Origin: a virus
Lineage: Duplodnaviria > Caudoviricetes
Length of the DNA stretch: 33,210 nucleotides
Virus record (IMG/VR): IMGVR_UViG_3300031922_000057
Location: 1-33,210 of that record
Direction: 5' to 3' (one strand)
Under the pieces are notes generated by a model. The model made no database searches and had not been told where the DNA came from. It worked only from the letters and a program-made list of their open reading frames with translations. Position numbers and translations under genes: made by a program. This document shows, in pieces, positions 1,597 to 10,340 of the stretch (positions are counted from its first letter, which is position 1; each line of letters starts with the position of its first letter).

Positions 1597-1625
1597 TTGA
1601 CTTGTGCATTATCTTCACATATAAT
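1597..1625 (+). promoter_or_regulatory. Sigma-A early (lytic) promoter
   Basis: TTGACT (1597-1602), 17-bp spacer, TATAAT (1620-1625). Operator 3 lies in the spacer. Confidence 0.85.
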
Positions 1626-1693: not shown

Positions 1694-1912
1694 ATGGAAA
1701 TAATGAAAGCGAAGCGAGAGGGAAAAAAACTCACGCAAGAGCAACTGGCAGAAATCGTAGGCGTTAATAGGTCTACAATAACGAAAATAGAAAATGGTGG
1801 AAGGCCATCGGTAAAGACATCCCAAAAAATAGCTGAAGCTCTTGAATTTGACTGGACTGAATTTTATAGCGACTGCCAAAAGCATAGTGTCTTAAAGGAG
1901 TTGATAACATGA
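1694..1912 (+). CDS. Cro-like XRE HTH protein
   Basis: LTQEQLAEIVGVNRSTITKIENG HTH; GAGGAGG RBS; divergent from the repressor. Confidence 0.9.
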   Translation: MEIMKAKREGKKLTQEQLAEIVGVNRSTITKIENGGRPSVKTSQKIAEALEFDWTEFYSDCQKHSVLKELIT

Positions 1913-2136
1913 CTAAGGTAGAGTTACTGAAAAAATATCATGGCATGGCCTGCTATAACCTGTTCTGTTACTCAAGGAATTATGCAATGACAGAGCCTAA
2001 AGAGGGTTCAGAGGCAGAGTGGAAACAAGCTGGTGGGGAAGTCGAACTGCTTGAGGAGATGATAAAGGAGCAGCAGCTGATAGAAAAAAATATCAATAAA
2101 GCTCATCGGTACTTAGATAAAAGACCCAGGATATAA
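1909..2136 (+). CDS. Hypothetical phage protein
   Basis: AAGGAG RBS; ATGA overlap with the cro stop. Confidence 0.75.
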   Translation: MTKVELLKKYHGMACYNLFCYSRNYAMTEPKEGSEAEWKQAGGEVELLEEMIKEQQLIEKNINKAHRYLDKRPRI

Positions 2137-2144
2137 CGATTAAA

Positions 2145-2207
2145 GTCGAAACGGAGCCAGCAGCTCCGTATGCCGGGGACGGCCTCCCGGTACTGATGAG
2201 ACAGGCT
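2145..2207 (+). ncRNA. Type II hammerhead ribozyme
   Basis: GTC-GAAA-[CGGAGC/GCTCCG]-TA^-[TGCCGGG/CCCGGTA]-CTGATGA-GAC. Complete core with open stem II (GTC/GAC). Loop I GGCCT pairs with 3' AGGCT as a pseudoknot. Predicted cut after A2170. Confidence 0.93.
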
Positions 2208-2236
2208 AGTAATTATGTGAGGAGGTGCAAATCCTG

Positions 2237-2536
2237 ATGACAAAAGATGCGGAAAACAAAATGAGTATGTACAATGCTTTTGGCACAGCACTTGTCAAGA
2301 TCAAAGATAGAGTTGGTGAAAAATTTGAGAAGTTGCATAATGAAGCTTTCAAGGCAGAACTTGAAAAACGCCGTGATGAGTGCCAGACACAACTAACTGA
2401 GCTGGTAAACGGTATTTTAGGCGAGTTAAGCCAGATAAAGGTTCTGAACGATGAGCTAGAAATAATAGAGATAAAGCTGCAAGCACAAGAAGAATGCTGT
2501 AAAGCGACACTGGGGGTGATAATGTGGAAGCAATGA
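2237..2536 (+). CDS. Hypothetical coiled-coil protein
   Basis: GGAGG at 2221-2225 supports ATG 2237; helical E/K/L-rich sequence. Confidence 0.7.
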   Translation: MTKDAENKMSMYNAFGTALVKIKDRVGEKFEKLHNEAFKAELEKRRDECQTQLTELVNGILGELSQIKVLNDELEIIEIKLQAQEECCKATLGVIMWKQ

Positions 2537-4509
2537 AATTAGAAAACAATCAAATATTACTTACAACAGGTCAGATAGCCGAACTTTACAGCATCACACA
2601 AAGGACAGTTCAGCTGTGGATCGAGTCAGGCAAGCTGCAGGCAGTACAGCAGGTATCCAACAAAGGGAAAGGCGGAGTAAGCCACATGATTCCCCTCTCT
2701 GCTTTGGATAATAAGCGTCAAATCCAGTATTGGAAGAAGAAAGACGTTGCTCCGATTGTTCCTGCAGAGAGCATCAAGGATGTTGCGGTGTCAAAGCAGT
2801 TTGATGAATTCACCGGAGATGAGCGTAAAGTAATTCAACAGTGGATTAAGGCAATCAATGAGTGGACGATGTACAGGTTAAGATATAAAGGTCAAATGGG
2901 TAATGCTGATCAGGAGTGGATAAGGTTAAATCAACGAAAGTATAAGGAAATAGGCCTGTCGGTTGACACTTTATACCGAAAGCTTAAGGCGCTTAAAAGC
3001 AATGATTATGATGGATTGATAGACAAGCGCGGAAAATGGGCTAAGGGCAAGAATAGCATACCTGAGACCGCATGGGAAGTATTTAAGTACATATATCTGG
3101 ATGAGAACCAAATATCCATAACTGAATGCCATAAGTATACGCTGATTTATTTTGAAAAGGAAATGCCGGGGATGTTGGCTGATATCCCCGGGTATGATGC
3201 GTTTTACAGAGCAGTAAAGACGATCCCGCATGCGGTGGTTAAATATTTTCGTGAGGGGGACAAGGTCTTTGAGGATGAAGCTTCGCCATATATAACTAGG
3301 CTGTATGACGATATCGAGGTCGGTGAAATATGGGTGGCGGACTATCATACATTTGACATCATGAGTATTGACGATGAAACACAAAGAGTTCATAGGTTGT
3401 CGATTATAGTTTTTATGGATGTACGTAGCCGCCTTGTAACAGGCTGGCATATTACGGATAATCCATCCAGCGATGGCGTACTGTATGCGTTGAGAAAAGG
3501 CATTCTTGATTATGGCATCCCGCGGTTTATATACGTGGATAACGGTTCTGAGTTTCTTTGCTTTGATATTGGAGGCAGAGGTCACCGAACGAAAAAGTCG
3601 GACAAACAGGTGCATGTGCCCCCGGGAGTATTTGAGCGATTGGGAATAAAAATGTGGAATGCTCAGGTGCGAAACGCAAAGGCCAAAATTATTGAGAGGA
3701 CTTTCCGGGAGTTTAAAGAGAAATTCAGCAGGCTTATTAAGGGTTTCTGTGGGGGTAACCCTCTAGAGAAGCCTGAGAATTTGAAAAAAACATTAAAATC
3801 GCGGAAAGGGATGTTGTTTGATTCCGAATTGAATGAAAATTTTCGTTTGTATGTTGAAGGTATGTACAACGAAACTAAGAGTAAAGGCATAGGCATGTAC
3901 GAGCGATCACCCAACGAAGTGTTTGCTGAAGAGCGTTTTGTTAAGCGTACAGCTACTCTTGAGGACTTGAACTTGATGTTAATGAGATCGAGTAAGATGC
4001 AAACGGTGGGACGTAAGGGTGTACATCTTGAAATCAGCGGCGAGAAGTTATTTTACTGGTCAAAAGACTTTCTGATAGAACATCAGGAGCAAAAGGTTTA
4101 TCTGCGTTACGATCCGGAAGATTTGCGAGAAGTAAGGGCATATGATGCGGAGGATAAATATTTGTGTACAGTACCGGTTGATAGCGACACCATACTTAAG
4201 TACGGTAGCAATAAGGAAGATGTTAAGAAGGCTATCAGCCAGATTAGGAGTTTCAAAAAAGCTGTCAAGGAATATAACGAAAACAGCATACTTGAGACAA
4301 TGCCCAAGATTGACAGGCTTGATCTTATGCTCTGGAAGTCCAAAAAGAATATTAAAGACCGGCAAGAGCAGGGTCATGCACAAGCCAAGATACTTGAAGT
4401 GGTCAGGGCTACCGAACCTATCACGCCGGAGCAGGAAACGATAGAAGATGGGATTATTAATATCCAGAGAACGATTACTAATGCAAATTTTAAAATGAAT
4501 GCCATGTAG
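2524..4509 (+). CDS. Mu-type DDE transposase (MuA-like)
   Basis: N-terminal HTH; catalytic WVADYHTFD, YVDNGSEF and KIIERTF motifs; C-terminal YLRYDPEDL Mu-transposase domain. Confidence 0.95.
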   Translation: MEAMKLENNQILLTTGQIAELYSITQRTVQLWIESGKLQAVQQVSNKGKGGVSHMIPLSALDNKRQIQYWKKKDVAPIVPAESIKDVAVSKQFDEFTGDERKVIQQWIKAINEWTMYRLRYKGQMGNADQEWIRLNQRKYKEIGLSVDTLYRKLKALKSNDYDGLIDKRGKWAKGKNSIPETAWEVFKYIYLDENQISITECHKYTLIYFEKEMPGMLADIPGYDAFYRAVKTIPHAVVKYFREGDKVFEDEASPYITRLYDDIEVGEIWVADYHTFDIMSIDDETQRVHRLSIIVFMDVRSRLVTGWHITDNPSSDGVLYALRKGILDYGIPRFIYVDNGSEFLCFDIGGRGHRTKKSDKQVHVPPGVFERLGIKMWNAQVRNAKAKIIERTFREFKEKFSRLIKGFCGGNPLEKPENLKKTLKSRKGMLFDSELNENFRLYVEGMYNETKSKGIGMYERSPNEVFAEERFVKRTATLEDLNLMLMRSSKMQTVGRKGVHLEISGEKLFYWSKDFLIEHQEQKVYLRYDPEDLREVRAYDAEDKYLCTVPVDSDTILKYGSNKEDVKKAISQIRSFKKAVKEYNENSILETMPKIDRLDLMLWKSKKNIKDRQEQGHAQAKILEVVRATEPITPEQETIEDGIINIQRTITNANFKMNAM

Positions 4510-4526
4510 GGAAGCTTATCGCCTTC

Positions 4527-4592
4527 CCTCCTGTAATGCGGCCCCGGAGATCGGGAGCGTTTCAAGCCGCAAATAACGCAGAGGACAGGGGG
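4527..4592 (+). ncRNA. Twister ribozyme (type P1) between MuA and MuB
   Basis: P1 CCTCCTG/CAGGGGG; T^AA; P2 TGCG/CGCA; GC; P3 CCCG/CGGG; P4 GCG/CGC closing loop TTTCAAGC; GAG-GA. Predicted cut between 4534 and 4535. Confidence 0.9.
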
Positions 4593-4600
4593 AGAAATTA

Positions 4601-5521
4601 ATGAACACATCGATAAGAGACAGAATTTTGCAGTATATCAAGGAAAGCGGGAAAAGCCAAACAAAGATTGCGCAGGAGTTTGGGGTATCGACTCCGATGT
4701 TTAATCAGTATTTAAGCGGCAAGTATCCTAATCCGGAGTCAGTTGAAGCAAAGGCAGAGGAGTTTTTCAGATTACGTGACAAGAGCGTGGGATTTGCGAA
4801 GGCTCCTGACTATGTTGAGACTTCTATTTCAACTGAGGTGTACCTCACGATTCAGTATTGTCATGTGAGCAGAGGTATCGGAGTGATAAGCGGGGATGCC
4901 GGGATTGGCAAGAGCAAAGCGGCTCTCAAGTATGCCCAGGATTACAGTGAGGCGATATATATAACCGCATCGAAAGCGTGTAAAAGCCTTAAGGATCTGT
5001 ATCGCATGGTAGCGAGGAAGCTTAGGATTAATGAGAATCGCAACTTGTTTGACATGCAGATCGATATACGCTCAAGGCTTGATGGATCCAATAAGGTGAT
5101 CATTATTGATGAGGCGCAGCATTTATCCGTAACGGCTATAGACGGCATCAGGTACTTTAATGATGAGGATAACGAAAACGGGTTGCAACCGGTCGGAATT
5201 GTATTTATAGGGAATCACGAGCTCAGGAATAAGATGATGGGTAAGTTTGAGCAGTCACTGGCACAGCTTTACAATAGGATTCAGATTCAACGAGTGATTT
5301 TTACCGGGAATGTTGCGGAAGAAGATATAAAGAAGCTCTTCCCTGTTTACGAAGAGAAGAGCTTTGCTGAGGAAGTTAAATTCCTCTTAGGGATCTCTCA
5401 GAGCAAGTGGGGAATTCGCGGTGCCATGAAACTTTTTATAAACGCATCAAACAACGAGAACATCACCATCAAGGGACTGAGAGCCATGGCTAAATATATG
5501 GGTATCGGAATGACAAGCTGA
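4601..5521 (+). CDS. MuB-like AAA+ transposition ATPase
   Basis: N-terminal HTH; Walker A GDAGIGKS; Walker B IIIDEAQHL; follows MuA. Confidence 0.95.
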   Translation: MNTSIRDRILQYIKESGKSQTKIAQEFGVSTPMFNQYLSGKYPNPESVEAKAEEFFRLRDKSVGFAKAPDYVETSISTEVYLTIQYCHVSRGIGVISGDAGIGKSKAALKYAQDYSEAIYITASKACKSLKDLYRMVARKLRINENRNLFDMQIDIRSRLDGSNKVIIIDEAQHLSVTAIDGIRYFNDEDNENGLQPVGIVFIGNHELRNKMMGKFEQSLAQLYNRIQIQRVIFTGNVAEEDIKKLFPVYEEKSFAEEVKFLLGISQSKWGIRGAMKLFINASNNENITIKGLRAMAKYMGIGMTS

Positions 5522-5609
5522 AACCCATAAGTTAAGTATAGCAATTTTTAAGTGTTATTTAAAGAGCATTATATGACCATTATAAGAACTTTAATTCAAG
5601 GAGGGAATT

Positions 5610-5732
5610 ATGCTGAAGCGGTTGATACATTTTATCCGGTATAGGACTGACGGCAGATACAGGTTGGCATATGACTGCCAGAAGCTTTGGGTACAAGTGA
5701 TGATTGCATCGGGTAGCATAACTGAAGTTTAA
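5610..5732 (+). CDS. Small 40-aa protein (MLKRLIHFIRYRTDGRYRLAYDCQKLWVQVMIASGSITEV), not in ORF track
   Basis: AAGGAGGG RBS before ATG 5610; open to TAA 5730-5732. Confidence 0.6.
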   Translation: MLKRLIHFIRYRTDGRYRLAYDCQKLWVQVMIASGSITEV

Positions 5733-5767
5733 GGAACATCTCAGGCCATATGAAAGGGGGCTAAGAA

Positions 5768-6238
5768 ATGATAGAGATAGAATTTATGAAACATTTTACA
5801 AAGATCGAAATCTTAGAAGCACTTGAGAGCTACGCAAATTCCAAGCTTTTATACCGAAAGATTTGCGCAATGCTCTATGAGACAAAATCAGACATGCTGT
5901 TTGGAAAATTGGAGCAACTTAATGATCGGTCAAGAAAAGTAATAAATGAACCATTAGAGTACGAGAAGCTCCATATAGAATGGATCAAAACATACGATGC
6001 TGTGAAAAGGCTTGATGAGCACTTTGAGTGCATATGCCGAAGCAGAGATAAGGCATCCGATGTCACAAACAAACTGCCGGACAAGGGTATCGATACCATA
6101 CAAAAAACTCAGATAACATATGTGGTTAACGACATGGATCGGTGCTTGATGTGTAGTACTTACGTTCCTGAAGGACGACAGGTTTGTCTTGCTTGCGAAA
6201 ATGGAACAACAAATATAATTGGATATCCTAATATGTAA
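5768..6238 (+). CDS. Hypothetical protein with C-terminal CxxC...CxxC zinc-finger-like motif
   Basis: AAAGGGGG RBS; CLMC-x10-CLAC. Confidence 0.7.
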   Translation: MIEIEFMKHFTKIEILEALESYANSKLLYRKICAMLYETKSDMLFGKLEQLNDRSRKVINEPLEYEKLHIEWIKTYDAVKRLDEHFECICRSRDKASDVTNKLPDKGIDTIQKTQITYVVNDMDRCLMCSTYVPEGRQVCLACENGTTNIIGYPNM

Positions 6239-6264
6239 AATCCGTTTGACCGCAAGGTCAGCGG

Positions 6265-6322
6265 TCTTAATGCAGCTTCCTGATGGGGAACCGTCCCAAG
6301 CCGGTATAGATGCAGAGGGGGA
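6265..6322 (+). ncRNA. Second twister ribozyme (type P1, short P1)
   Basis: T^AA; P2 TGCA/TGCA; GC; P3 TTCC/GGGA; P4 ACCG/CGGT closing loop TCCCAAGC; GAG-GG; P1 only TCT/GGA. Preceded by a GCAA-tetraloop hairpin (6242-6264). Predicted cut between 6268 and 6269. Confidence 0.85.
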
Positions 6323-6347
6323 ATAAAATACGATGGGGGGAATTAAG

Positions 6348-6590
6348 ATGAGTATCAGGCATAAGGTAATTTCAAAAGGCGGCAGCCTGACAATCCCTGC
6401 GGATATCAGGCGGGAGTACAACTCTTTCCTAGGGGGCGAAGCTGTGGACATTACAGTAGAGGATGGTAAAGTTGTAATTGCGCCGCATACTCCACGGTGT
6501 ATTTTTTGCGGGGATACAACTGAAGTTGGTAGGTATAGAGGCAAAAACGTTTGCAAAAAATGTGTAAGCGAAATGACGGAGGTGATTTAA
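6348..6590 (+). CDS. AbrB/MazE/SpoVT-family DNA-binding protein, clostridial AbrB-like
   Basis: GSLTIPADIRRE...GEAVDITVEDGKVVI fold motif plus CIFCG...VCKKC tail; start set by GGGGGG RBS. Confidence 0.85.
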   Translation: MSIRHKVISKGGSLTIPADIRREYNSFLGGEAVDITVEDGKVVIAPHTPRCIFCGDTTEVGRYRGKNVCKKCVSEMTEVI

Positions 6591-6592
6591 CA

Positions 6593-7267
6593 ATGCTGAA
6601 CGGTGAAATTATTGCAAAGGTTGACAATTTATCAAAATGGATGAAATTAGCTGAAGAAGCAAGAAAAGAGATTGAAAGAATCAAGGGTGAGTTTCAGAAG
6701 CTTGGTGTTGAAGCGTTGAATGACAAGAAGGTTAAACAGGTTGAGTTTTGGGGCAGCGATAATGCAAAGGTTGTTATTACATGCAGCGAAAGCCTAAAGG
6801 TGGTATCGCATTCGTTTCTGTCGCAAACTCTTGGCTATATATTAAGCGATTTTGTCAAAGAGGAGCGCATATACAAGTATACGGAGCCTTTTAAGCGCAT
6901 ATTGACTGCGGTATTCCAAGGGACTTACGTAGAGCAGTCTGTGGATGATGTGATTGCACAAGTTGCGACAGACGATAAGACTGCGACTGCTCTTAAGAAG
7001 AAATTAAAGGGTAATTGGGAAAAGGATGTGGAGACTCTTAAAAATCTTGCGGGGCTACGTCAAATGGATGCGGAGCATTATGCGTACTTTGTACAGGAAG
7101 CCGCAAATTATGAACGAATCGTTCAGCTTCTGGAGACAGCCGGGTATAGAAAGAATACGATTGAGTTTGAGGTGGCGCTTCGTGCAATCAGAAATGCTGT
7201 TGTAGTGGAGGAAGGCATTAAGGTCGGAGTCGAGTATGACGAGAGCGGGGATATGTTGCCGTTTTAA
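6593..7267 (+). CDS. Hypothetical early protein (occupies the position of Mu Gam; homology not established)
   Basis: GGAGGTG RBS before ATG 6593; N-terminal coiled coil. Confidence 0.7.
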   Translation: MLNGEIIAKVDNLSKWMKLAEEARKEIERIKGEFQKLGVEALNDKKVKQVEFWGSDNAKVVITCSESLKVVSHSFLSQTLGYILSDFVKEERIYKYTEPFKRILTAVFQGTYVEQSVDDVIAQVATDDKTATALKKKLKGNWEKDVETLKNLAGLRQMDAEHYAYFVQEAANYERIVQLLETAGYRKNTIEFEVALRAIRNAVVVEEGIKVGVEYDESGDMLPF

Positions 7268-7294
7268 AAATCCAAAGCGATGAAGGTGTTTTAG

Positions 7295-7768
7295 ATGTCA
7301 AAAATAACAAACGAACAAAGGCGCTCAATATATGGAATTGCATCGCAGTTGGGGATTTATGAAAAAGGAAACCCGGATGACAATTTGCATGTGCTGGTCG
7401 GTAGAGTGACCGAAAAAAAATCAATTGCGGATCTGGATGCCGCAGATGCAGCCAAGGTGATATACGAGCTGATTAAACTTAAGGATGGGCAAAGAATATC
7501 GAGGGCTGGTATGATTACGCCTGCGCAGGAAAAAAAGATCTGGTTTTTCATGTACAAGCTTAGTAGTTTTGACAAGGAGCCATCAAAGGTTAAATTGGCA
7601 TATCGGCTTTGTAAAATAATAAAAAAGGAGCTTAAAATTTCAGCTTGTGAACGGAAACCGTTTCAGTTTGTGTCTTTTGAAAATGGCAACACCTTAATTG
7701 AAGTAATTAAAAAGTACGTCCAGTACGAAGAACGGAGGAATGGAGTCAATGGAAAAATGGATAAATGA
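7295..7768 (+). CDS. GemA/Mu gp16-like (DUF1018) protein
   Basis: IYGIASQLG...LHVLVGRVTEKKSIADL..A.KVI..L pattern; directly upstream of Mor. Confidence 0.75.
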   Translation: MSKITNEQRRSIYGIASQLGIYEKGNPDDNLHVLVGRVTEKKSIADLDAADAAKVIYELIKLKDGQRISRAGMITPAQEKKIWFFMYKLSSFDKEPSKVKLAYRLCKIIKKELKISACERKPFQFVSFENGNTLIEVIKKYVQYEERRNGVNGKMDK

Positions 7769-8045
7769 AATAACCGTTGATGAAGTGCCGGATAGGTATA
7801 AGCCTCTGGTAGATGTTATCGGCATTGATAACATTATACGGATGTCGATCATATTTGGCGGCACAACTATGTATTTTCCGAAGAGTAACATGCTGGTAAA
7901 GTCCATCCGGGACAAAATAATAAAACGAGAATTCAACGGTGGGAACTATAAAGAACTGGCAAGAAAATATAATTTGTCCGAATCGCAGGTTAGAAATATA
8001 ATTAATTACAGCAAAGCGAATGCGCGTCCAACTATACCGGGATAA
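7740..8045 (+). CDS. mor: Mor/C-family transcription activator
   Basis: FGGTTMYFPK...RDKIIKREFNGGNYKELARKYNLSESQVRNII. Start may be 7749. Confidence 0.9.
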   Translation: MESMEKWINEITVDEVPDRYKPLVDVIGIDNIIRMSIIFGGTTMYFPKSNMLVKSIRDKIIKREFNGGNYKELARKYNLSESQVRNIINYSKANARPTIPG

Positions 8046-8109: not shown

Positions 8110-8151
8110 AAGATATCATTGAAACTCTAGATTCGATGGTATCTTTTATTT
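8110..8151 (+). terminator. Intrinsic terminator between mor and the late genes
   Basis: 14-bp stem AAGATATCATTGAA/TTCGATGGTATCTT with two G-U pairs, followed by TTATTT. Confidence 0.6.
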
Positions 8152-8901: not shown

Positions 8902-9492
8902 ATGGGAAAGCGAACAAGGGTAAGGTCGAAAATTGGGAGCCTTCCCCCGGAGCTGCGGACATCGGTTGAACAGATGATCATGATACCGCAGGAGTACACA
9001 TATCAGGACATCAGTGAATTCCTAATGGAGCATGGATATGAAATATCATATGGTGCAGTTTTCCGTTATGCCAGGAGAATAAATGCCGATCTGCAGATGG
9101 CGGTGATGAACCAGGAGAATCTGCGCAGGATTACGGATGCAATGAACAAGTACCCTGATCTTGATTATGTGGAAGTGCTGATGGTCATAGCCGCTCAAAA
9201 GCTTATGGAAAGAATCATGGCAGCACCTGAGGAACAATGGGATGCAATGGAGATTGAGGATGTTGTTAAAGGTGTGGTCAGTCTAGCCAGAACTAAAACG
9301 TATAAAAGGCGAACTGACAGCGTTTTAAGGTCCAAAGAGGAAAGCGGCATGCAGGCGGCGCTGAATAAATTGTTTGATGCTTTAGGACGAGAGCATCCGG
9401 ATTTATACAACAAGGTTTACGATGTAGCTAAAAAGCAACTTGATGCTGTGGCGGATACAGAAAAAGCTTTGAAAGCCGAAGGTGCTTCATGA
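8902..9492 (+). CDS. Mu gp27-like (DUF3486) putative small terminase
   Basis: RSKIGSLPPELR..VEQM...TYQDISEFL...GYEISYGAVFRY. Confidence 0.8.
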   Translation: MGKRTRVRSKIGSLPPELRTSVEQMIMIPQEYTYQDISEFLMEHGYEISYGAVFRYARRINADLQMAVMNQENLRRITDAMNKYPDLDYVEVLMVIAAQKLMERIMAAPEEQWDAMEIEDVVKGVVSLARTKTYKRRTDSVLRSKEESGMQAALNKLFDALGREHPDLYNKVYDVAKKQLDAVADTEKALKAEGAS

Positions 9493-9992
9493 ACTGGTAT
9501 GTAGCGCAAGTGATGACCGGAAAAGAAGAAGAGATTAAGGTGCGTATTTGTGAGTGCGGTATAACCGCCGTTGTACCCCAAAAACGTATGTTAGAGCAAA
9601 ACTGCGGTAAATGGCGCAGTGTAGTGCGAGTTATTTTTCCCGGTTATGTTTTTATCGTAATCTCCGTAATGGGAACAGAAACGTATTACAAGATACGGTC
9701 AGTGACGGGAGTGATTAAGCTCCTTGGTGATGAGCTAGGGCCTATTGCTATTTTAGATGCTGAAGTTGGCGCTATATTGAGACTGACGCAAAACGGCGAC
9801 CTACTGGGTTTATCTGAAATATTTGTTGAAGGCGGGAAAATAAACGTGGTGTCAGGGCCTCTGAAGGGGCTTGAAGGCAAGATTGTTAAGCTTGATGCTC
9901 GAAGATACAGGGCGAAGGTAATCATAAGCCTCATAGGAGAATCACGAATTGTAGATCTGCCGGTGAATGTTATAAAAAAATCCGAAGCTTGA
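9489..9992 (+). CDS. loaP: NusG-paralogue antiterminator, LoaP-like
   Basis: NGN domain WYVAQVMTGKE...IFPGYVFI; KOW domain VVSGPLKGLEGKIVKLDARRYRAKV with the basic patch typical of LoaP. Confidence 0.85.
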   Translation: MNWYVAQVMTGKEEEIKVRICECGITAVVPQKRMLEQNCGKWRSVVRVIFPGYVFIVISVMGTETYYKIRSVTGVIKLLGDELGPIAILDAEVGAILRLTQNGDLLGLSEIFVEGGKINVVSGPLKGLEGKIVKLDARRYRAKVIISLIGESRIVDLPVNVIKKSEA

Positions 9993-10340
9993 AATGCTGA
10001 CTCGTCGCATATCAGGTTCAGGAGGTTATAAGCGATAAGATGCTAAACCGAAAAAGCATTTAAGAGGGGTCCGATCAGATGTGCGAAACCATTTAAAACC
10101 CTTTTAACTCCTTATAAAAACCATTTAAAAAGAATCGGCAATACAATCATGCTAAAGAGGTATTAAAATTGATTGTGGACCGTTTAAATGCGTTTGGCGG
10201 GTATCTGCCAAAACCATCGGAAGCATAAATCATAAATTTCTTATAAAAAGTGTTTATAAAAAAACAAAAAGCTTATAAAAGACGTTTAAATGCACAAAAA
10301 TCGAATTCGATAATTCATTCCCCCCAATAAGGAGGAATTC

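Follow-up and report, generated by a model that had tools for sequence, protein, structure and literature searches.

The early transposition operon of the Mu-like phage record IMGVR_UViG_3300031922_000057 (Duplodnaviria; Caudoviricetes) carries three self-cleaving ribozyme motifs: a type II hammerhead ahead of the transposase gene MuA, a twister between MuA and the AAA+ transposition gene MuB, and a second twister downstream of MuB. The window analysed here is the whole virus record of 33,210 nucleotides (nt), with an estimated completeness of 70%, and its gene content and order (DDE transposase, AAA+ MuB, GemA, Mor and gp27, from Pfam and PHROGs) are those of a Mu-like phage. From comparison with relatives, we think it on balance probable that the ribozymes cleave the early transcript into pieces that have protected 3' ends and decay separately, the main effect being to set the MuA-MuB block apart.

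A scan of the window with Rfam (E ≤ 1) returned exactly three matches of any kind, one to Hammerhead_II and two to twister-P1, and thus no other ribozyme class. All three motifs are intergenic and lie on the same strand as MuA (Table 1). An earlier reading of this DNA, the original prediction, had placed the same motifs in sense orientation between genes, with cuts at 2170, 4534 and 6268; the Rfam matches, the positions of the open reading frames (ORFs) and a reading of cores and pseudoknots bear out the motifs, and the cut positions stand as predictions from the core reading. The hammerhead has the core CUGAUGA with GAAA and a GUA triplet, three stems open at stem II, a predicted cut after A2170, and a pseudoknot between loop I and the 3' tail (2182-2185 with 2203-2206). 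Rfam support is plain for the hammerhead (50.4 bits against a gathering score of 37); both twisters match the full-length model at E values of 9.8e-7 and 1.1e-9 but stay under its gathering score of 67.2 (44.1 and 54.4 bits).

The low twister scores qualify these assignments, as does a U-G wobble in the middle T1 pair of twister 1, the sole UUC/GGA among 69 distinct twisters. The gathering score is a curation cut-off, not a structural feature, and a twister exceeded it in only 1 of 37 related records, so that low scores appear typical of the lineage. Both twisters contain U^AA in L1, stems P1, P2 and P4, and the conserved L4 and GA residues, and in both the T1 and T2 pseudoknots, which were read from the sequence and are not modelled by Rfam, can pair. 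In twister 1, P1 can form between 4527-4533 and 4586-4592; in twister 2 it comprises 3 bp only, and P1 is described as dispensable for twister cleavage (PMC5408937). A relative with 91% MuA identity (L001) keeps all three motifs, with compensatory changes in hammerhead stem I and in the pseudoknot. Folding free energies gave the three motifs weak z-scores (-1.85, -0.70 and -0.77), as expected because the RNAs are pseudoknotted, and these scores were not used as evidence. We regard the three motifs as intact and predict self-cleavage at 2170, 4534 and 6268.

For the survey of relatives, 93 loci were gathered by MuA (in one search, the best 80 of 215); counting the window as well, a usable MuA frame was present in 89 of 94, which formed 29 clusters at 90% identity. 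Slots were counted per cluster among loci long enough to judge, the pre-MuA slot being the 500 nt upstream of MuA. A structure descriptor, in a wider form that also admits an A-U pair in T2 of twisters, gave 232 matches in the 89 MuA loci (128 twisters and 104 hammerheads), all sense and none antisense; two doubtful matches of a looser version were not counted. When 35 whole virus records were searched with the Rfam models, 97 matches remained once two below 16 bits had been dropped, all of them sense and all between -2.5 and +5.6 kb of the MuA start, with no ribozyme match in the remaining 723 kb of these records. Upstream of MuA, 21 of 25 clusters have a ribozyme; in the slot occupied by twister 2, from MuB to the AbrB-like gene or the 224-amino-acid (aa) gene, 23 of 25 do. 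Class swaps occur in both flanking slots: ahead of MuA, L003, L004 and L007 have a twister, and in L011 the AbrB-like gene is preceded by a hammerhead. Selection therefore appears to act on the cut and not on the motif.

The slot between MuA and MuB is different: it holds a ribozyme in 4 of 28 clusters only, and the five loci concerned form one branch (Shimodaira-Hasegawa-like approximate likelihood-ratio test 98, in a quick tree of 30 rows). Where the middle ribozyme is missing, MuA and MuB in most clusters overlap or are separated by no more than about 25 nt. Because the conserved cuts flank MuA-MuB, the downstream one mostly falling directly ahead of the AbrB-like gene, the family-wide unit would be the MuA-MuB block released whole, not MuA versus MuB. 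The original prediction had seen the purpose of the cuts in separating MuA from MuB RNA and setting the MuA:MuB ratio; with 24 of 28 clusters lacking a ribozyme in that spacer, this is rejected as a family-wide purpose.

Covariation supports the function of both motif classes. The T1 helix occurs as CAC/GUG, CCC/GGG, CGC/GCG, UCC/GGA, CUC/GAG and UCU/AGA, and the hammerhead pseudoknot has at least four Watson-Crick pairs in all 52 distinct relatives, against a mean of 24 when the tails are swapped. The sense-only strand, the slots and the covariation together show selection on the ribozymes, and they support RNA-only cutting of the early operon, proposed in the earlier reading, as the likely role. 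Neutral or selfish passengers serving no role for the phage could account for the several related phages that lack ribozymes and for copies with core changes. Such passengers would hardly keep strictly to the sense strand and to the early operon, occupy fixed slots in which the classes swap, or show two-sided covariation, and we find this explanation very hard to credit. A further Rfam twister scan of 149 genomes of one phylum gave no match and was uninformative, as it missed even the genome with a known variant copy.

The number of ribozymes per locus ranges from 0 to 6, and the modules flank changing accessory ORFs; L001, for instance, carries one hammerhead-plus-ORF unit more than the window. 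Copies within a locus are more alike than copies between clusters (mean 0.75 vs 0.65 for hammerheads, 0.76 vs 0.66 for twisters). These features would fit natural insulators resembling RiboJ, which acts in this way in E. coli (PMC6206723): each ribozyme would give the next gene a fixed 5' leader regardless of the upstream sequence, and accessory genes could come and go in the variable early region while MuA, MuB and the late activator stayed unaffected. The difference in similarity is modest and could stem from common descent, the MuA/MuB slot, which has no accessory gene, is left unexplained, and the mechanism overlaps with segmentation of the transcript; as the main role, insulation seems to us distinctly improbable.

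Several relatives carry variants of this arrangement. Cassette-like arrays upstream of MuA comprise three to four tandem hammerheads, with a single small variable ORF, or a few, after each (L011:4502-5680, L042:3450-5972 and L107:8152-9655). Pre-MuA hammerheads with changes in the core or triplet (CCGAUGA, CUAAUGA, GCC) are present at L058:5856, L072:4650, L078:5059 and L080:5920 and in L043, and may be slow or dead. The pre-MuA slot of L038 (5915-5975) holds a hairpin and a structured stretch with a CUGAAGA word that falls outside both the descriptor and Rfam, either a degenerate hammerhead or another motif.

Nearly all twisters of these operons are preceded by a GC-rich hairpin of 5-9 bp, here termed P0, that ends 0-8 nt upstream of the cut. 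At -6 kcal/mol or stronger, P0 was present in 54 of 56 twisters, compared with 7.6% of 5,600 shuffled sequences and 4.1% of 5,340 positions chosen at random, and in 75 of 77 under the wider descriptor; its sequence varies among relatives while the pairing is kept. In a viral sample picked by motif and not by MuA, P0 accompanied 24 of the 25 twisters whose locus has a Mu gene and 21 of the 60 in loci lacking one (49 twisters in short loci, 29 of these with P0, were set aside). P0 starts at a median of 1.5 nt from the upstream stop codon (69 of 74 within 30 nt), and the hammerhead module at a median of 4 nt (34 of 42 within 30 nt). The distance from the cut to the next start codon has a median of 76 nt for twisters and 55 nt for hammerheads, giving the order stop, hairpin, cut, ribozyme body, Shine-Dalgarno (SD) sequence, start.

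With P0 ahead of the cut in 75 of 77 twisters, upstream pieces would gain terminator-like 3' ends, and since the 5' product of a type II hammerhead ends in stem III plus two nucleotides, it would have an equivalent hairpin end without P0. The module looks like a terminator in which the U run has been swapped for a ribozyme, but transcription continues. P0 as an intrinsic terminator was itself rejected, there being no U run and neither P0 of the window being called terminator-like; the likeness is one of place and shape only. The hairpin is most likely the optional stem named P0 in the published twister consensus (PMC5408937), an identity that rests on name and position. A P0 upstream of P1 is also common in hatchet ribozymes, where it is dispensable for cleavage (PMC4604424, PMC10761166). 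What sets the present P0 apart from both is that it is near-fixed in early operons of the Mu-like type, with its start at the stop codon of the preceding gene.

A promoter-like site and a terminator-like stem-loop, both consensus matches only, suggest a single early transcript of about 6.5 kb. The three predicted cuts would split it into four mRNAs, encoding the regulators (to 2170), the small ORF and MuA (2171-4534), MuB and two ORFs (4535-6268), and the genes from the AbrB-like gene to Mor (from 6269). The original prediction had two released RNAs; its small-ORF+MuA and MuB+two-ORF pieces fit, but three cuts give four pieces. Each upstream piece would retain a terminator-like 3' hairpin, P0 or hammerhead stem III, that could shield it from 3' exonucleases, and each downstream piece would gain a structured 5'-OH end ahead of its own ribosome-binding site. 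The pieces may then decay separately, at rates set by 5' trimming and RNase J. Close relatives of the window phage sit in Bacillota genomes, and a search of 11 host genomes detected RNase J in every one. Family-wide, the lifetime of the MuA-MuB block would become independent of those of the upstream regulators and of the downstream AbrB-GemA-Mor block; the window's clade would additionally cut MuB loose and may gate its translation.

The same cuts could instead serve as a kill switch of the glmS type, in which the 5'-OH end is trimmed and RNase J degrades the downstream transposase RNA, limiting MuA and MuB from leaky or finished early transcription. The highly conserved slot directly before MuA (21 of 25 clusters) and the RNase J in all 11 host genomes would suit such a switch, and 5'-OH ends, including that of glmS, are trimmed and degraded in B. 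subtilis (bioRxiv 2023.03.12.532304). As with glmS and RNase J1 (PMC6765202, bioRxiv 2023.03.12.532304), self-cleavage upstream of a gene would leave a 5'-OH RNA in a host group that has RNase J. Unlike glmS, no ligand is known or suggested for the present ribozymes, their cuts are internal to the operon, and the upstream product bears a hairpin. Destruction would need no near-fixed hairpin on the upstream product, and repeated cuts around single accessory genes fit segmentation better; moreover, 5' stem-loops stabilise processed RNAs in B. subtilis (bioRxiv 2023.03.12.532304) and the twister 5' end is reported to be buried (PMC8782182). We consider a kill switch unlikely as the general explanation, and it can also hold for one piece within the segmented transcript.

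Several points weigh against maturation into separately decaying pieces. The glmS product, with a structured 5'-OH end, is trimmed and degraded by RNase J1 in B. subtilis, while stem-loops at processed 5' ends stabilise products in the same organism (bioRxiv 2023.03.12.532304), and the new 5'-OH end may lengthen or shorten the lifetime of a piece. P0 could be a folding aid only. No ribozyme was found in L005, L006 and L009, indicating that the elements are dispensable in the wider group, and of nine further loci, three have ribozymes and six do not (one of the six ends at the MuA start; Rfam was negative in the five searched). The clusters are related, so their counts are not independent events. 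Finally, what the sequences contain are the motifs, strand, slots, swaps, pseudoknots, P0 and layout, from which we infer cleavage in cells of the window phage. In favour of such cleavage, clustered prophage hammerheads cleave in vitro and in vivo (PMC3088659, PMC8782182), and in Desulfovibrio vulgaris it was shown in vivo for phage-linked type II hammerheads (PMC8782182).

For one relative, L016, the best RNA run is represented by assembled contigs at a depth of about 2-7. One contig in each of two RNA runs from one study bridges the first hammerhead cut; in run X1, the cover of low-depth contigs falls around the pre-MuA cut but also elsewhere, and no back-joints are listed. As the libraries may contain DNA, these contigs support nothing.

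RNA ends of the 5'-OH and 2',3'-cyclic phosphate type are those joined by the ligase RtcB. Products of these ribozyme classes have such ends (PMC8782182), and the original prediction had suggested that the doubly cut MuA and MuB pieces are compatible with ligation into circular mRNAs. RtcB is encoded in one of three host genomes of the clade with the MuA/MuB twister (G501). It is absent from the phage record, which is 70% complete, and was found in 2 of 11 host genomes, whose completeness is not given. The MuA piece would combine a hammerhead 5' end with a twister 3' end, so that one active site cannot be rebuilt; in the MuB piece, 6264-6267 does not pair with 4586-4589, leaving no helix for self-ligation. 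The twister 5'-OH end also ligates poorly (30%; PMC8782182), and Perreault et al. 2011 (PMC3088659) detected neither circular nor spliced products of clustered prophage hammerheads. Circular MuA and MuB mRNAs accordingly seem to us extremely improbable, and this part of the original prediction is not upheld.

In the window, the 91-nt spacer between MuA and MuB is occupied by a twister whose P1 contains, in its 3' strand, the SD-like sequence of MuB. Alignment of the five MuA/MuB twisters showed 98% of cells paired, kept across 57% MuA identity, with five pairs changed on both sides, among them pairs of T1, T2, P3 and P4. SD and P1 overlap by at least 3 nt in four of the five, compared with 2 of 72 other twisters, and L107, a sixth clade member found later, shares this layout, its P1 spanning the SD with 7 perfect base pairs. 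P0 of these twisters starts at the MuA stop codon or no more than 7 nt from it and competes for bases of the outer P1 helix. When the 5' arm of P0 was masked to mimic the terminating ribosome, four of the five twisters showed stronger computed binding to the SD strand, with a change from -7.5 to -14.2 kcal/mol for twister 1 of the window; an anti-SD motif was used only as a comparison in these computations.

The third cut in the window's clade appears to have replaced the overlap of the MuA stop and MuB start. P1 would hold the MuB SD until the cut, after which P0 would refold and release it; we put forward this dependence of MuB translation on cleavage tentatively, at slightly below even confidence. 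A fuller version, speculative and rather unlikely as a whole, makes the twister a natural cleavage-gated translation switch in place of stop/start coupling: the ribosome finishing MuA would cover the 5' arm of P0, so that P1 extends across the MuB SD and the active fold is favoured; after the cut, P0 would refold, cap the MuA message and free the MuB site, and MuB would be made only from transcripts whose MuA frame had been read. A role in setting the MuA:MuB ratio, not family-wide given 4 of 28 clusters, is plausible for the window's clade only, and more through the SD in P1 than through lifetime. Several points tell against such gating. L010 pairs its SD only with a bulge; the 3' arm of P0 is rich in C, and an SD placed in the same register could also be paired by 13 of the 72 other twisters, although none of these pyrimidine-run twisters has the U that completes the match to GGAGG; the SD-in-P1 evidence is a single evolutionary event; the window's own copy has the U-G wobble in T1; and an engineered P1-SD construct remained far under its open-SD control (PMC5052635). 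A viral pattern scan for further MuA/MuB twisters recovered only two copies, both already known. In the distant relative L112, the 119-nt MuA/MuB spacer is filled by a GC-rich branched stem-loop with no ribozyme match.

The engineered type P1 SD switch (Felletti et al. 2016, PMC5052635) likewise has its SD in the 3' strand of P1, and its active form gave 5-fold more reporter in E. coli. That device is synthetic; the twister described here is natural and intercistronic, with a competing P0 at the upstream stop codon. A literature search found no paper on the MuA/MuB twister or on a natural SD-holding P1, though the gene-context supplements of Roth 2014 and Weinberg 2015 may list them. If true, the gate would be a natural twister controlling translation, so far met in the literature searched only as an engineered device, and the 91-nt spacer is small enough for a two-reporter construct.

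The association of such ribozymes with phages, and the idea that they process polycistronic RNA, are already published, proposed in 2011 (PMC3088659) and 2019 (PMC6765202). Perreault et al. 2011 described clustered type II hammerheads that flank single prophage genes or short gene blocks, as the present ribozymes do; they were active in vitro, and processing into operon- or gene-length mRNAs was proposed. Beyond that account, the slots around MuA-MuB are fixed and two ribozyme classes mix and exchange within them, and occurrences of the layout with the 3' hairpin have been counted. Mu-like phages are the strongest gene association of hammerheads and twisters, which cluster there for reasons described as unknown (PMC10085705), and different stabilities or translation efficiencies have been suggested for phage-linked ribozymes (PMC6765202); the clustering near Mu-like genes seen here agrees with these reports. 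The window is a real instance, under selection, of a pattern that is already in the literature and whose purpose is unproven. Three parts are new: the slot map and its class swaps, the near-fixed P0 in Mu-like early operons and the clade-limited, SD-holding MuA/MuB twister; slot map and twister were met nowhere in the literature searched, within the limit noted for the two supplements. The role of bacterial self-cleaving ribozymes apart from glmS is largely unknown (PMC6765202), and this family makes the question testable, having two fixed class-swapping slots, a hairpin with a clear predicted job, and relatives with and without ribozymes.

The genes and other features of the early operon are listed in Table 1. 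Leftward, the window encodes a repressor and an IrrE-like peptidase; rightward, the order is Cro-like gene, MuA, MuB, AbrB-like gene, GemA, Mor, gp27 and structural genes, including those of a contractile tail. The identities of MuA and MuB were confirmed with Pfam and PHROGs. The GTG at 2524 taken as the MuA start aligns to the ATG of L001, an alternative being the ATG at 2533. Among named phage records there was no close relative of the window phage, the best reaching 42%.

Table 1. Features of the early region of the window
Feature	Position	Strand	Remarks
Divergent repressor promoter-like site	1596-1568		opposite direction to the early promoter
Sigma-70-type promoter-like site, predicted early transcript start	1597-1625	+	11/12 consensus matches; activity only predicted
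Predicted piece 1: Cro-like helix-turn-helix gene and 75-aa ORF	1694-2136	+	Cro-like 1694-1912; ORF 1909-2136
Type II hammerhead (Hammerhead_II, RF02276)	2144-2210	+	50.4 bits, above gathering score 37
Hammerhead anatomy	2152-2199		stem III 2152-2168; predicted cut after 2170; stem I 2171-2192; core 2193-2199
99-aa ORF	2237-2536	+	without known family; overlaps MuA start
MuA-like DDE transposase	2524-4509	+	PF09299, PF02914, phrog_310
P0 of twister 1	4508-4529	+	begins within MuA stop codon; predicted 3' end protector of MuA piece
Twister-P1 no. 1 (RF03160)	4530-4592	+	Rfam match 4530-4589; 44.1 bits, E 9.8e-7 over window; predicted cut after U4534
MuB SD-like sequence	4588-4594	+	within 3' strand of P1
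MuB-like AAA+ transposition protein	4601-5521	+	PF13401, phrog_296
40-aa ORF and accessory 156-aa ORF	5610-6238	+	5610-5732 and 5768-6238; both 3' of MuB
P0 of twister 2	6247-6266	+	two alternative pairings; 9 nt after upstream stop
Twister-P1 no. 2 (RF03160)	6264-6323	+	54.4 bits, E 1.1e-9 over window; predicted cut after U6268
Predicted piece 4: AbrB/MazE-like gene to Mor/C activator	6348-8045	+	AbrB/MazE-like 6348-6590; conserved 224-aa ORF 6593-7267; GemA 7295-7768; Mor/C activator 7749-8045
Terminator-like stem-loop, predicted early transcript end	8110-8145	+	

Weaker terminator-like matches fall within MuB and GemA. The accessory 156-aa ORF has no blastn match in L001. The 224-aa ORF directly 3' of the AbrB-like gene is kept in most relatives and has no convincing Pfam or PHROGs family.

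Among the wider set of loci, RAGATH-28 matches were found several kb 3' of MuA (L080:13440-13524, L113:9947-10035, L109:9362-9463 and L111:10085-10213); two of them are above the gathering score, and three of the four are in Mu-like loci without ribozymes. The viral contig L190 carries four same-strand twisters within 3.6 kb, with no Mu gene match in the locus. Further downstream in the window (9489-10340), a NusG/KOW antiterminator-like gene (9489-9992) and the terminase-like gene after it are separated by 350 nt of AT-rich non-coding DNA, in which Rfam gave no match. AT-rich stretches at 5521-5610, 95-245 and 10090-10300 contain repeated TTTAAA-type words and imperfect inverted repeats, and are possible binding sites for a phage protein.

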